IMG/VR virus record: IMGVR_UViG_3300028832_000135
Span: 6,057-70,056 of that record
Direction: 5' to 3' (one strand)
From: a virus
Taxonomy: Duplodnaviria; Caudoviricetes
DNA length: 64,000 bases
The notes under the pieces: model-generated
Databases searched by the model: none
Told to the model about the DNA's origin: nothing
The model's input: only the letters and a program-made list of their open reading frames with translations
Program-made: the position numbers and the translations under genes
Shown here: piece by piece, positions 23,385-58,932 of the stretch
Position numbering within the stretch: the stretch's first letter is position 1
Layout: each line of letters opens with the position of its first letter

Positions 23385-24189
23385 AACCCACCGCTCTGAT
23401 GTCGAATACCCACATATCAAACAATGCTTGCTTGTTAATTGTCGGTGTCCTCAAGATTGCCAACTTCTCGGTTGTCACATCAATCCAGTCAAGATACTTC
23501 ATCTTATCGGGGTACTCATCAAATTGTTGCACCCTATCAATGCACTCCGTCCTAAAGGCTTGGAGAAATATCTTCATATCGTACTTGGTTTCATCTGTGT
23601 CCTTAAAGGCTATCCTATCCTCAATCTTTAAGGCATTTGCACCACTTACATAGTCAATATTATCTACGGCTAATTTAACGAACTTATGAAACTCATCAAT
23701 GCCGTATTTTAATAACAAATCAACTTCATATTTATTTGAACAGAAGTTTGGAAATCTCCAATCCTCACTTCCCGCAAACTGCGAAATATCCTGGTGCGTG
23801 TAGTTATCCAGGCGATAGACGCAGGCACGGCTCGTCAGTGTCTCCAATGTCTGTCCGATGTCAACCACGGTAAGCACAAACCATACGGTCTTTGGCGGTT
23901 CTTCTGTAATCTTGAGCAATGCGTTCTTTGACGCAGAACTCATACTATCCCCGTCAATGACATATAAAATGTTTGTCGCTATTGAATAACTATCATCAAT
24001 TACGGCTCTAATGGCATCTACGCCCTTATCAACCTCGGCATACTCCGCCTTAAGCCACTTTGCAACCTCTTTGGCAAGTGTCTTTCTGCCACTCCCCTTT
24101 TCCCCTACGAGAATAATAAAATGTGCAAGTGACTTACTCTCCATTGCGGCCTTAATCTGTTGTTGAACGCATCTTTGTCCTATCATCAA
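23371..24189 (-). CDS. holB: Clamp loader delta-prime-like subunit
   Basis: GEKGSGRKT; NALLKITEEPP; TLTSRA. Confidence 0.8.
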   Translation of the reverse strand: MMIGQRCVQQQIKAAMESKSLAHFIILVGEKGSGRKTLAKEVAKWLKAEYAEVDKGVDAIRAVIDDSYSIATNILYVIDGDSMSSASKNALLKITEEPPKTVWFVLTVVDIGQTLETLTSRACVYRLDNYTHQDISQFAGSEDWRFPNFCSNKYEVDLLLKYGIDEFHKFVKLAVDNIDYVSGANALKIEDRIAFKDTDETKYDMKIFLQAFRTECIDRVQQFDEYPDKMKYLDWIDVTTEKLAILRTPTINKQALFDMWVFDIRAVGYAER

Positions 24190-25091
24190 AACAATCTCCT
24201 TAACTGCTTTTTCTCTATTGTATTCTTCTTTGGCATTACATCATATGTGCCAACCCTTAAATTACAACAATCGTTAGAATTTGGATTATGCTTTTGCCAA
24301 TACTCATATGCAGTATCTTCGTCCTCACAAACTGAAATCTCCTTAAACCCATAAATCTTATCCAACAACTCAATCTTCCGGGCAAGCGGCAAATGCGTGT
24401 AGCCCCCGTGCTTAACTGTGTACTGGCTAAAATCCAAGTCAAACCACTTCCTTATCCAAGTGTTGACTCTTAAGAACTCAACTATCAACTTATCACATCT
24501 GATATTTGCCAATCGGTCGTAATCAACGAACTCTGGTATGAATGGTGACAACCTTACTTGCACATCAAAACCACTATCATATAACTTCTCTACGGCTTTT
24601 ATACGCTTGCTCGGTGGTACGGCTTTCTCATAGGCTAACTTATGATACAAAGCATCATCAAAGCAAGTAATGGTCACTTGAATATGTGCAAGGTCTTTAT
24701 CCATTACATCAAGGTATTCTTCATATGCCACAATGTCTGATTTAGTGACGATAAGATATGGTTGTTGCTTTTTCTTTAACTCCCACAAGGTATGAAAAGT
24801 AACTCTGTGTTCCAACTCCAATGGTTGAAAACAGTCTGTCATACCGCCTAATCGGATTGCGGGCATACCGCTCGGCAACCTCGCTATCTTCTTGCGTATC
24901 TTCTCTATGTCCGCTACGGCAGGATTTTGGAAATCCCATAGGTTTCTGAAATCCAAAAGGCTCTTTGCATAACAATACTTACAATCGTGTTGACAACCAC
25001 AACCATATGTATCAAGCCTTGTTGGGTAATGGCACTTACTACCCTCATTGCCTTTTACTTCCTTATAGAAACTCTTGAACTCTTTACTCAT
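24186..25091 (-). CDS. Radical SAM protein, spore-photoproduct-lyase-like
   Basis: CQHDCKYC; IRLGGMTDCFQP; IVTKS; VRLSPFIP; start at MSKEF. Confidence 0.85.
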   Translation of the reverse strand: MSKEFKSFYKEVKGNEGSKCHYPTRLDTYGCGCQHDCKYCYAKSLLDFRNLWDFQNPAVADIEKIRKKIARLPSGMPAIRLGGMTDCFQPLELEHRVTFHTLWELKKKQQPYLIVTKSDIVAYEEYLDVMDKDLAHIQVTITCFDDALYHKLAYEKAVPPSKRIKAVEKLYDSGFDVQVRLSPFIPEFVDYDRLANIRCDKLIVEFLRVNTWIRKWFDLDFSQYTVKHGGYTHLPLARKIELLDKIYGFKEISVCEDEDTAYEYWQKHNPNSNDCCNLRVGTYDVMPKKNTIEKKQLRRLF

Positions 25092-26115
25092 AAATAACCC
25101 CCAATAACCTTGCCTCAATAGCAACTTTAGGTTGATTATCCCACTTAATATCCGCATTGAGTTTAACAATTATCGGCAACAATACTCTGCAACAATCAAA
25201 GAAATTATCCTGGTCTGCCAGATGTCGTTGTAGTTCTGGCTCGTAAGTTCCGGGCAACTGCAAGTAATCGAATGTGTGAAGTATATCGTACTTATTGATG
25301 TCCAAAAGGAAACTCATATAATCCTTGATGAACTGTTTTAAGTCCTTGCCGTCTGCATAAATACTTTCTACGGTCTTTATTGTATCTGCACTATTACGCT
25401 CTCTTATCGCATCTGTAAGCGTAAAGAACACATCATAGTCTACTATGCCTAATGCGGCCACAACGCTCTCTACGGTCAATTCGTGTGTGTATGACAAACA
25501 CTTATCCAAAAGCGTTATAGCATCTCTCATACCACCGTCTGCGACCTTTGCAAGGTATTGCAAGGCATTACTCAACTCCTCGGTAACGAATGGCGTTATC
25601 TCTTGCTTATGAATATGCACCAATCTCTTATATATTCCCTGTTGACTTATCCGCTTGAAATCAAATCTCTGCACACGACTCAGGATTGTTCTCGGTATTT
25701 TTTCGGGATTTGTAGTGCACATAATGAAGATTGCCTTTTTCGGTGGCTCTTCCAACAACTTGAGAAGTGCTTGCCACGCATTGTTTGAAAGTGCGTGCAC
25801 CTCATCAAGAATGAATATGCGATACTCACTATCCATACTCTGCACTTTGGCTTGTTGAATAATGTTTCTGATGTCATCTACGGAGTTATTACTTGCCGCA
25901 TCTAACTCTAACGGATTGCCCTTACCCTTATTTATTTCTGACGCAAAAATACGGGCACAAGTTGTCTTACCAGTGCCCGCACCACCTGTAAATAGATAGG
26001 CGTGTTGTACCTCGCCACTATCTAATTGTTGCTTAAGAATTATTTTCACCGACCCCTGCTCGGTCACATCATCAAATGTCCGGGGTCTGTACCGTGTAGC
26101 CAGTGACTCTGCCAT
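25084..26115 (-). CDS. dnaX: Clamp loader gamma/tau-like ATPase
   Basis: LATRYRPRTFDDV; GTGKTT; ELDAASN; ILDEVH; ALLKLLEEPP; ILSR; GGMRDA. Confidence 0.95.
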   Translation of the reverse strand: MAESLATRYRPRTFDDVTEQGSVKIILKQQLDSGEVQHAYLFTGGAGTGKTTCARIFASEINKGKGNPLELDAASNNSVDDIRNIIQQAKVQSMDSEYRIFILDEVHALSNNAWQALLKLLEEPPKKAIFIMCTTNPEKIPRTILSRVQRFDFKRISQQGIYKRLVHIHKQEITPFVTEELSNALQYLAKVADGGMRDAITLLDKCLSYTHELTVESVVAALGIVDYDVFFTLTDAIRERNSADTIKTVESIYADGKDLKQFIKDYMSFLLDINKYDILHTFDYLQLPGTYEPELQRHLADQDNFFDCCRVLLPIIVKLNADIKWDNQPKVAIEARLLGVIYE

Positions 26116-26138
26116 TGCTGTTCTCCTCGTTATGTGAT

Positions 26139-26214
26139 TGGCGGGGGTAGTGGGAGTCGAACCCACGCAATCCGGGAGTCAAAGACCCGTGCCTTACCGC
26201 TTGGCTATACCCCA
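26139..26214 (-). tRNA. trnQ: tRNA-Gln(UUG), CCA encoded
   Basis: Cloverleaf TGGGGTATAGCCAAGCGGTAAGGC...CTTTGAC...GTGGGTTCGACTCCCAC...GCCA. Confidence 0.92.
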
Positions 26215-26219
26215 ATATA

Positions 26220-26995
26220 AATGATATAGGTACTTGTCGGCTTGCCCTATATCACTTAATGTGACCTACTTCACATAAGAGGCTCAACCTCTCTTGTTGG
26301 AGTTATCAGTCATTCTCCAAGTTCCCGCTACCCAAAGACTGTTTACCACAAGGACGGTGTTAGGGTAAGAGGCTCAACCTCTCTTGTTGGGGTAACTCCC
26401 CAAGTTCCCTCTGTTTCACTTGTATACCGCAAATATGAGGTGGGTGGCTATTTGCAACTAACCAATGCGGTTTGTTACGACAAGACTTGCCTTGTCTCTT
26501 TTCTCCTGTACTCGTAACAACATACTCGTATCTTGCTCTCTGTCACAAGATATAAAGACACTGATACTCACGCTTATCAGAGCGACTCATTTTGGCAGAG
26601 AAGAGCGGTCTCTTGGGGCAGTGTTGACTACTATAGGTATCTTGTAACTCTATAAGTACTGTTGAGTCACTCATCAATTTCTCACAAATATCCTTTTCAT
26701 CTAGAATAAAAGATATTGTTCCCTAAACACCGCTGGTACAAGGTTGTTTAAGGTACAACCAAGTAAAACCTAGTTCATATTGGTATTTCTAATCACTTTA
26801 TAAATATTGCCTTTTGTATCACTCAAGATGAACTCACACAACTCTGAATAATTAAGGTTATCTGAATATTGTATCGGAGTATGCCTTTCGGCTACTTATG
26901 TTTATGTGGCAATCAGGGAGTATGCCATATCTCTTGTGATACTTTAACCGTCAACTTCACAAAAAGGGACCAAGAAGTTTCGGTGGGCATTTGTT
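26220..26995 (-). ncRNA. Candidate large structured ncRNA
   Basis: ~780 nt without a credible ORF; many hairpins; duplicated multi-stem unit with a compensatory change. Confidence 0.45.
26276..26390. repeat. 25-bp exact direct repeat, 90-bp period
   Basis: TAAGAGGCTCAACCTCTCTTGTTGG at 26276 and 26366. Confidence 0.95.
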
Positions 26996-26997
26996 AG

Positions 26998-27255
26998 TTA
27001 GATGACTCTCTTAACCAGTATGTACTCAACATAGCGTGTTGTTCTGTTGTATCGACTAATGCCCGTATGCCATTCACTTATGATGTCATACTCGGTATTT
27101 GCAAGACGCTTACGCAATGCGAAAATGATTGCAGAAAGTCTTGTTGCACCAAACATCTCAATGGCTTCCATACTCGTAATGCCCTTTTCCATAGGCATAC
27201 GCTCTTTAAGCACATCAAAAACCAAGTTGGTTTGATAAACCATATTGTCTGTCAT
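26998..27255 (-). CDS. Winged-HTH small DNA-binding protein
   Basis: GITSMEAIEMFGATRLSAIIFALRK pattern. Confidence 0.7.
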   Translation of the reverse strand: MTDNMVYQTNLVFDVLKERMPMEKGITSMEAIEMFGATRLSAIIFALRKRLANTEYDIISEWHTGISRYNRTTRYVEYILVKRVI

Positions 27256-27483
27256 TTACTTTTCCTCCTTTTCGATTTCCAACTTCCTTGAGTTAAATAT
27301 CTTGTTCATTAAATCCTTCGTGTAATGTGTTAGCAAAAAATCTGCCATTAACAATGCGTGCAAGTCATTTGCGTCCTCGCAATGACGCTCACCGTCAAGA
27401 TGAATTGATGCAAGCAATTCGGCAGATAACCTTGCGAACTCGTCACGGGTAATCTTGATTTCTTCATTAAGGTCGTTTTTCAT
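27256..27483 (-). CDS. Hypothetical protein
   Basis: SD AGGAGG. Confidence 0.6.
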   Translation of the reverse strand: MKNDLNEEIKITRDEFARLSAELLASIHLDGERHCEDANDLHALLMADFLLTHYTKDLMNKIFNSRKLEIEKEEK

Positions 27484-58179: not shown

Positions 58180-58796
58180 TTATTTGAGCATACCAAGCAC
58201 ATCATTGGGGTCAATTCCATTGGCCTCTGCGTACTTGTAAAAGGCTGTTTTAGGGTCTCCGCCATATTGATTAATAATCTGTCTTACCTGTGGGTTCTGT
58301 GACATCATTTGATTGACAAGAGCGTTAGGATTGCTTGCCGACTTGAACATTTGAGCCATTTGTTTTGCTTGTCCTATCCTGCTCATATTTGACTGGTTTA
58401 GGGTTTGTAAAATGGGGTTCATTGTTTAACATCTCCTCAATCTTTGATATGCGTTGTTCCAGGGACCAGGTATCAACCGGGGGCAACTCCTGGTGTAGTT
58501 GAATATCATATGCCGTCACGGTCTTATACCCTGCACCGTCCGTCTGTGCCAAGTAAACTATCGGCTCGGTTTCATCTAACAGAAGAGCAGATGAATTTGG
58601 GTTCATATGATAAGCGTCAGCTCCGTTCCGTCCGTGTACTTTGATTATTTGTGGAGTCATCTGATATTGATAAGGGTTTGCGTATGAATAGGGTGTTTGA
58701 TACATCATCTTCTCCTCTCAAGCACATTAAAGCGGGCATCACATCACAATGCTTTTGTTCCATTATGGCTAATAGTAATTCACTGATGTCCTGCAT
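58180..58796 (-). CDS. Three overlapping small ORFs (58180-58422, 58325-58708, 58617-58796)
   Basis: ORF track plus manual translation of the 59-aa MQDISELL ORF; SDs present. Confidence 0.7.
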
Positions 58797-58828: not shown

Positions 58829-58932
58829 AAAGAGCAACCGTATTTCTACGATTACTCTTTGAAAATTGCACGAAAATTGTATGAAAATTAAAGACCGCCC
58901 GTGGTACGCATTGTTAAGAGGCGTGGGCGGTT
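58829..58932 (-). promoter_or_regulatory. Hairpin - three AATTTTC direct repeats (11-bp period) - terminator
   Basis: GAAAATT at 58861, 58872, 58883; stems at 58893-58932 and 58829-58860. Confidence 0.65.

Follow-up and report, generated by a model that had tools for sequence, protein, structure and literature searches.

On comparative evidence, the longest stretch without a minus-strand ORF in this 64-kb phage window is a mosaic of at least three smaller conserved RNA modules and not one giant RNA. The yield is two folds supported by covariation and a paralogous third module, none of which matches Rfam 15. Comparison of homologues shows the modules to be conserved and strand-specific predicted folds, modular and exchangeable between phages. 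A sequence-only reading of the same DNA had proposed a structured non-coding region directly upstream of a tRNA, perhaps related to the large phage RNAs GOLLD and ROOL. We agree with it that the stretch is non-coding, that it shares its strand with the genes and the tRNA, and that it carries selected RNA structures unexplained by any Rfam 15 family; we part from it on kinship and on size. As to function, the modules are probably passenger small RNAs of a phage tRNA operon that are released by tRNA-processing enzymes.

The window (the whole 64,000-nt stretch of DNA that was analysed) comes from a 70-kb IMG/VR virus record that is rated complete, and every long ORF in it is on the minus strand. 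The ORF-free stretch sits in the replication module. Reading along the minus strand, a Holliday-junction resolvase is followed by two small ORFs, an 85-aa winged-helix gene and the ORF-free stretch, and then by tRNA-Gln(UUG), a DnaX-like clamp loader, a radical-SAM gene and a second clamp-loader subunit. The DnaX-like gene served as the anchor for gathering relatives, and labels such as L137 denote related loci or contigs. Judged by DnaX, the closest cultured relatives are Streptococcus phages MS1 and Dp-1 and Clostridium phage phiCTP1, at 44-48% identity. The features discussed below are as follows, in the order of transcription.

26998 to 27255, minus strand: upstream gene, 85-aa winged-helix protein (HTH_39; Pfam PF14090, E 8e-6)
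26804 to 26992, minus strand: module A, predicted three-way-junction RNA (model R1, 137 bits; local MFE z -4.5)
26648 to 26803, minus strand: private spacer, 156 nt (unmatched by blastn and nhmmer in about 150 related loci, apart from a patch in L140)
26472 to 26647, minus strand: B-ext, 5' extension of module B, about 150 nt (blastn matches to L137, L138 and L140)
26359 to 26474, minus strand: B-core, predicted pseudoknotted RNA of about 113 nt (model R2, 110.6 bits)
26276 to 26362, minus strand: module C, about 87 nt, paralogue of the 3' half of B-core (orthologue in L143)
26218 to 26275, minus strand: two private hairpins and tRNA leader (inverted repeat I2)
26139 to 26214, minus strand: tRNA-Gln (UUG) (ARAGORN; Rfam tRNA, 52.6 bits)
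25084 to 26115, minus strand: downstream gene, DnaX-like clamp-loader subunit (Pfam DNA_pol3_delta2, E 7e-30; PHROG 5846, E 2e-84)

The region had been singled out as the largest without ORFs, and rightly: positions 26167-26997 form the longest stretch in the 64-kb window that lacks a minus-strand ORF of at least 50 aa. No stop-to-stop frame in the stretch, which before the tRNA gene covers 26215-26997, is longer than 85 aa. Gene callers of other assemblies that carry the locus likewise leave it empty. When the stretch was compared by tblastn with 7,370 ORFs of relatives, the best match reached only 22 bits. Indels of 2 and 4 nt, together with variable loop lengths, exclude a conserved reading frame. 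With no long frame, no tblastn match and indels that are not multiples of three, the possibility of a protein-coding sequence, a decayed gene or a pseudogene was rejected. Part of the stretch is somewhat AT-rich (33-36% GC). Promoter and terminator signals inside it do not rise above chance, and this makes its co-transcription with the neighbouring genes plausible, if weakly.

Folding energy alone would not justify a claim of structure, since it is only moderately unusual. For the whole region the MFE z is -4.0 on the minus strand versus -2.6 on the plus strand (100 shuffles). Only two of the 200-nt windows are conspicuous, 26801-27000 (z -4.5) and 26201-26400 (z -4.1), against a phage-wide background that has a mean of -0.9 and a standard deviation of 1.5 and in which 9.6% of windows fall below -3. 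It is covariation in homologues that really supports structure. In terms of energy the description "highly structured" is borne out in part only. The stems named in support of that description are all there, namely TTGTTAC/GTAACAA (26520-26472), CTGATA/TATCAG, TGATATAGG/CCTATATCA and GCC-GAAA-GGC. The last of these has only 3 bp and sits in a variable loop of module A; most of the features stressed earlier fall in B-ext, B-core and module C.

If the stretch were a single conserved RNA of about 780 nt, relatives would be expected to carry it as a unit, and they do not. Close relatives, at 75-92% DnaX identity, have 167-347 nt here and share only the first 190 nt or so, and the middle block is common to a different subset of phages. 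More distant relatives with up to 68% DnaX identity (25 IMG/VR and 80 JGI metagenome loci) have packed ORFs before dnaX and no homologue, and the whole genomes of 19 of them gave chance matches only. Closer relatives, at 69-92% DnaX identity, were found through a protein collection. They keep the order winged-helix gene, gap, dnaX, with a gap that ranges from 167 nt to 1,511 nt. It may hold tRNA-Gln only; one group has an HNH gene and a tRNA, and another has no tRNA. The layouts seen are module A alone, A and tRNA, A with an HNH gene and tRNA, and A followed by further DNA, B and tRNA. The gene between module A and tRNA-Gln encodes an HNH_3 endonuclease (L128:1972-2412, also in L129 and L130). 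Since both the size and the contents of the gap vary, we regard the site as a hot spot for gain and loss of cassettes. The tRNA-Gln is kept at the same position in L117-L123, L128-L130 and L137-L142. From the names of the records, the relatives appear to come from ruminant gut samples. One of them, a 200-kb phage contig, has about 2.4 kb without ORFs of at least 60 aa (L137:5507-7984); this holds module A, tRNA-like fragments with T-arm motifs, B-ext, B-core and tRNA-Gln, and may contain further uncatalogued modules.

Module A corresponds to the first 150-190 nt or so past the winged-helix stop codon, which are common to all closer relatives. Its predicted fold has a helix P1, a hairpin P2 and a P3-P3b-P4 arm, with a P2 loop and a P4 cap that differ in length between copies. 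At the junction the strands read GCCC-N-CCG, CGGUUAAAG and CAAAAGGCA, with little or no variation. RNAalifold on a MAFFT alignment of 7 distinct sequences predicts 31 pairs, and 94.4% of cells are paired, compared with 28-39% when the partners are slid. Double changes occur in 11 pairs of this alignment, a number that 0 of 500 shuffles reach. A larger set of 12 homologues gives 93% of cells able to pair (30-36% when slid) and double changes in 18 of the 31 pairs (again 0 of 500 shuffles), although this alignment was fitted to model R1 and so leans towards the structure, whereas the 7-sequence alignment is independent of it. Several of these 12 sequences, and of the 8 used for B-core below, are close relatives, so that the shuffle controls overstate significance.

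Covariance model R1 also picks up weaker copies of module A in L137, L138 and L140. Minimal forms of about 70-90 nt occur in unrelated contexts, between an ORF and tRNA-Arg in L144 and between an ORF and an intrinsic terminator in L147. In the window the winged-helix stop codon is 5 nt ahead of module A, and in 11 of 12 cases the module starts 2-6 nt past a stop codon. The winged-helix gene is also 5' of module A in L117, L118, L122, L123, L124, L128 and L138; these cases were inherited together, so the adjacency counts as three of four independent gene contexts. The L108 copy, from another sample, differs from the window near 26984 by an A to G change in CCCACCG, and there a P2 A-U pair has become G-U. 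Pattern scans of IMG/VR with the first two module A patterns and an exact 21-mer gave no match, and a third pattern found L137 only. Six pattern matches in genome contigs were set aside as chance, as none fits the full motif or model R1.

Module B has a different set of carriers among relatives. The block at 26622-26370 of the window matches sequence just 5' of tRNA-Gln in L137, L138 and L140, and it is absent from close relatives that have module A only. The blastn stretches, which cover 209-258 nt and extend into B-core, are 77.6-79.4% identical to the window. B-ext itself contains the CUGAUA/UAUCAG hairpin. Its end can be drawn as an acceptor-like stem of 7 bp, UUGUUAC/GUAACAA, abutting a T-arm-like hairpin, GACAAG/CUUGUC. 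RNAalifold predicts 28 pairs in B-ext, 5 of them with double changes, from only 4 sequences.

A pattern made from the most conserved portion of B adds four IMG/VR contigs (L143-L146), and a second pattern returns the same set. The phages that carry B-core are otherwise unrelated, with sizes of 70 to 200 kb, and each record has exactly one copy. The predicted fold starts with S1, an invariant helix of 6 bp (ACCGCA/UGCGGU, 26471-26466 with 26431-26426), and includes a covarying hairpin S2 and, further 3', the covarying hairpins S3 and S4, the latter with the loop-closing motif GGUUGNGCC. Four pairs of a pseudoknot join CCUC (26440-26437) to GAGG (26411-26408), and depending on the phage these read CCUC/GAGG, CCUU/AAGG or CCCU/AGGG. 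Between S2 and S3 lie about 45 nt that hardly vary in eight sequences which are overall only 66-78% identical to the window copy. In the 8 homologues 97.4% of cells pair (38-52% when slid), and 15 of 30 pairs show double changes, including 2 pseudoknot pairs, a level not attained by any of 500 shuffles. Collecting homologues had been proposed as a check on the structure, and in both module A and B-core the compensatory changes do exceed the controls, in sets that are small and partly related.

In L143, L144 and L145 B-core lies among tRNA genes, 1-2 nt past a CCA end, which in L143 and L145 belongs to a tRNA-like 3' end. The L144 copy fills the 117 nt between tRNA-Arg and tRNA-Asp in a stretch of 20 tRNA genes, starting 2 nt past the CCA of the former and ending 7 nt before the latter. 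The copies in L138 and L140 are followed by tRNA-Gln at a distance of about 10 nt. In the window, L137, L138 and L140 the element ahead of it is the acceptor/T-arm-like minihelix at the end of B-ext. Two weak matches to known RNAs lie on L145. One, at L145:412-492 on the minus strand, is an 81-nt element ending in UCCACCA that scores 43.7 bits with the tmRNA model (gathering score 47); the match is confined to the tRNA-like domain, and the element stops 2 nt 5' of B-core. The other, at L145:2136-2242 on the minus strand, is a Y RNA-like (YrlA) match between tRNA genes, with 30.8 bits against a gathering score of 69.

Module C follows B-core, and with the 3' half of B-core it makes up the duplication that had been described earlier. 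The duplicated unit (GGGAAC, hairpin, CAA, hairpin) is real: the 21-mer CAAGAGAGGTTGAGCCTCTTA has exactly two copies in the 64 kb, with 0 expected, and the compensatory change from GGGG/CCCC to GGAG/CTCC between the copies is confirmed. The first copy (26409-26367) belongs to the 3' half of B-core and the second (26326-26277) to module C. The latter module reads ACAGUCU..GGGAAC, followed by a hairpin with loop AUGACUGAUAA and then a GGUUGAGCC hairpin. L143 has an orthologue 3' of its B-core with the loop conserved and compensatory changes in both stems (UUGGAG/CUCCAA against UCAGAG/CUCUGA, and GAGAGG/CCUCUU against AAAGGG/CCCUUG). A partial variant is present in L137 and L146.

About 220 nt, made up of the spacer and the last hairpins, have no homologue and may be filler. 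The spacer has an ordinary local folding z, and its patch at 26743-26771 matches L140 at 86% over 29 nt. The private hairpins are UGUGA..UCACA and UGAUAUAGG..CCUAUAUCA, followed by a conserved tRNA leader, AUUUAUAU. The TGATATAGG hairpin (I2) is private to this phage. Within the final 57 nt before the tRNA only the last 10 nt or so have homologues, common to L118 and L123.

Are these helices formed by RNA or by DNA? G-U cells greatly outnumber A-C cells: module A has 29 of the former and 5 of the latter, B-core 13 and 0. The helices are therefore those of the gene-sense strand only, which fits RNA and argues against a protein-binding site in duplex DNA.

Known RNA families do not account for the modules. 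Rfam 15 was run at gathering and at permissive thresholds (E up to 10) on window positions 25900-27400 and on 22 related loci. In that part of the window this gave the tRNA plus two chance matches only, even at E up to 10, and in the related loci tRNAs and sub-threshold noise only. No ribozyme, riboswitch or tmRNA family of Rfam matches in the stretch, and neither Rfam nor ARAGORN finds a tmRNA anywhere in the window. By blastn nothing in GenBank phages corresponds to the whole stretch, B-core or module A, the searchable full-text literature has nothing relevant for the core sequences, and among 150-151 sampled Clostridia genomes models R1 and R2 find no copy. A single Clostridia match of 23.5 bits (L155) was dismissed, as it is without the S2 helix and the conserved core. 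A published catalogue lists about 8,500 candidate phage RNAs from IMG/VR (PMC10690425) and could include the modules, which are apparently uncatalogued as far as Rfam 15 goes; their novelty is thus unproven.

The suggested kinship with GOLLD or ROOL found no support in cmscan against Rfam. The GOLLD model (about 800 nt) gave no match at any threshold used, in the window or the related loci, and neither did the ROOL model (about 580 nt, with three pseudoknots and six multistem junctions) when E values as high as 10 were allowed. ROOL and GOLLD are large ornate non-coding RNAs of phages and prophages, often beside tRNA genes, and ROOL was first found in cow rumen data (Weinberg et al. 2017, PMC5737381). 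Like them, the stretch is non-coding, structured and phage-borne, with tRNA-Gln directly after it, which is a likeness of context and does not define membership. Unlike them, its conserved units are modules of 70-190 nt that occur separately, and not one fold of 580-800 nt. The centre of B-core is also far more invariant than that of ROOL as described.

What then might the modules do? We favour the following scheme. The stretch would be the non-coding front of a small phage tRNA operon, read in the direction of the flanking replication genes. It would encode a string of independently folding and separately exchangeable modules: A, B-ext with B-core, and C. Host enzymes that process tRNAs would cut the long transcript: RNase P at the 5' ends of tRNA-Gln and the next tRNA, and an activity of RNase Z type or RNase P type at the element ahead of B-core, which is always a tRNA or a tRNA-like minihelix. 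Set free in this way, the modules might be stable small RNAs with a function in trans. Module A may have a role in cis, in place of this or in addition, as a structure at the 3' end of the upstream mRNA, with its folding tied to translation termination. That the modules are transcribed, where they are cut and how stable they are we infer from sequence.

There are viral precedents for such passengers. The tRNA cluster of phage T4 includes the small stable species 1 and 2 RNAs, which are co-transcribed with the tRNAs, and murine gammaherpesvirus 68 has tRNA-linked small RNAs that are processed by RNase Z. The modules would resemble both cases as passenger RNAs in a viral tRNA transcription unit, with processing inferred here; they have no known sequence relation to either. 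The tRNA-like domain of tmRNA offers a further comparison, limited to the L145 element 5' of B-core with its partial, sub-threshold match; unlike tmRNA, B-core has no evident reading frame for a tag.

Another suggestion is that the modules are purely cis-acting signals of a polycistronic transcript, with no function in trans. Module A would then serve the upstream gene and dnaX as a 3' stabiliser or as a switch (of termination, antitermination or translation-coupled type), and B and C would aid tRNA maturation through processing or spacing. As processing or stability signals they would fit the same data as passenger RNAs do. The modules are always on the gene strand, module A is nearly always close behind a stop codon, an intrinsic terminator comes next after it in L147, and in L124 it stands directly before the dnaX ribosome-binding site. 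But what lies downstream of A varies (tRNA, HNH gene, dnaX or terminator), so that no single regulated target is evident, and a near-invariant centre of 45 nt kept by B-core across unrelated phages exceeds the usual need of a spacer or nuclease site. We consider a cis role without any function in trans to be possible but unlikely.

B-core, and possibly module A, might also be a new class of self-cleaving ribozyme that cuts at its own 5' edge and so frees the 3' end of the upstream tRNA or mRNA. The start of B-core 1-2 nt past a CCA end in L143, L144 and L145 would place the cut well, its almost invariant centre and covariation-supported pseudoknot are as in catalytic cores, and it is single-copy per phage. 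A precedent exists in the HDV-like theta ribozymes, for which such a role has been proposed and which are found within 5 nt of phage tRNAs (PMC10879173); like them, B-core is small, pseudoknotted, a few nucleotides from the end of a phage tRNA and carried by gut phages. It is about twice as long, however, and neither an HDV-family model nor any Rfam ribozyme family matches. Its helix order also departs from the HDV-like fold (P1, P1.1, P2, P3, P4, with cleavage 5' of P1). The S1 strands are separated by a long hairpin and then a pseudoknot strand, which is not the P2-P3 order, and by our reading of the covariation-supported structure, S1 enclosing S2 and the 5' pseudoknot strand misfits a nested double pseudoknot. 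Moreover, four phages have something other than a CCA-ending tRNA upstream of B-core. Self-cleavage by the modules is for these reasons a quite improbable explanation, though an attractive one.

An origin or other DNA-level element (iterons, single-strand initiation hairpins), or functionless remains of genes or of a tRNA array, could be suspected from the location inside the replication module, the two-copy repeat and the part with 33-36% GC, the insertion hot spot with its HNH gene in L128 and the tRNA-like fragments in the equivalent region of L137, but is highly improbable given strand-specific G-U pairs, covariation that keeps RNA helices and a pseudoknot, B-core among tRNA genes in unrelated phages and no protein remnant by tblastn with the 7,370 ORFs of relatives. 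Decay may explain the private spacer and hairpins only.

The modules as passengers of a tRNA operon bear on a wider matter. Phage tRNA clusters are increasingly regarded as tools of counter-defence and takeover. To our knowledge, hardly any work has been done on the other RNAs that accompany the tRNAs in them. The modules are short enough to be synthesised and would be candidates for a new ribozyme or factor-binding RNA. A bolder suggestion, to which we give little credence, is that B-core represents an undescribed class of RNA that is catalytic or binds a tRNA-processing factor, and module A a second new class coupled to translation termination. If true, B-core in the tRNA clusters of ruminant-gut phages might mature or protect tRNA 3' ends without host nucleases, or act as a decoy for those nucleases. 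The finding is worth experimental follow-up, chiefly on B-core. There is also a more general lesson, that what looks like a giant RNA in a single genome can break up into exchangeable modules when relatives are compared.

Several other observations were made along the way. At 58894-58930 on the minus strand the window has an Rfam abiF RNA motif, with 47.1 bits against a gathering score of 37; the two ORFs just 3' of it (58325-58708 and 58180-58422, both on the minus strand) have no Pfam match. The radical-SAM gene (24186-25169, minus strand) between the two clamp-loader subunit genes is kept in close relatives, and L124 and L128 are without it. In many distant relatives (L003-L008, L014, L016, L017 and L025) the DnaX-like match extends over about 1,400 nt versus about 1,030, which implies an insertion of some 370-460 nt inside the gene, possibly an intron or an intein.
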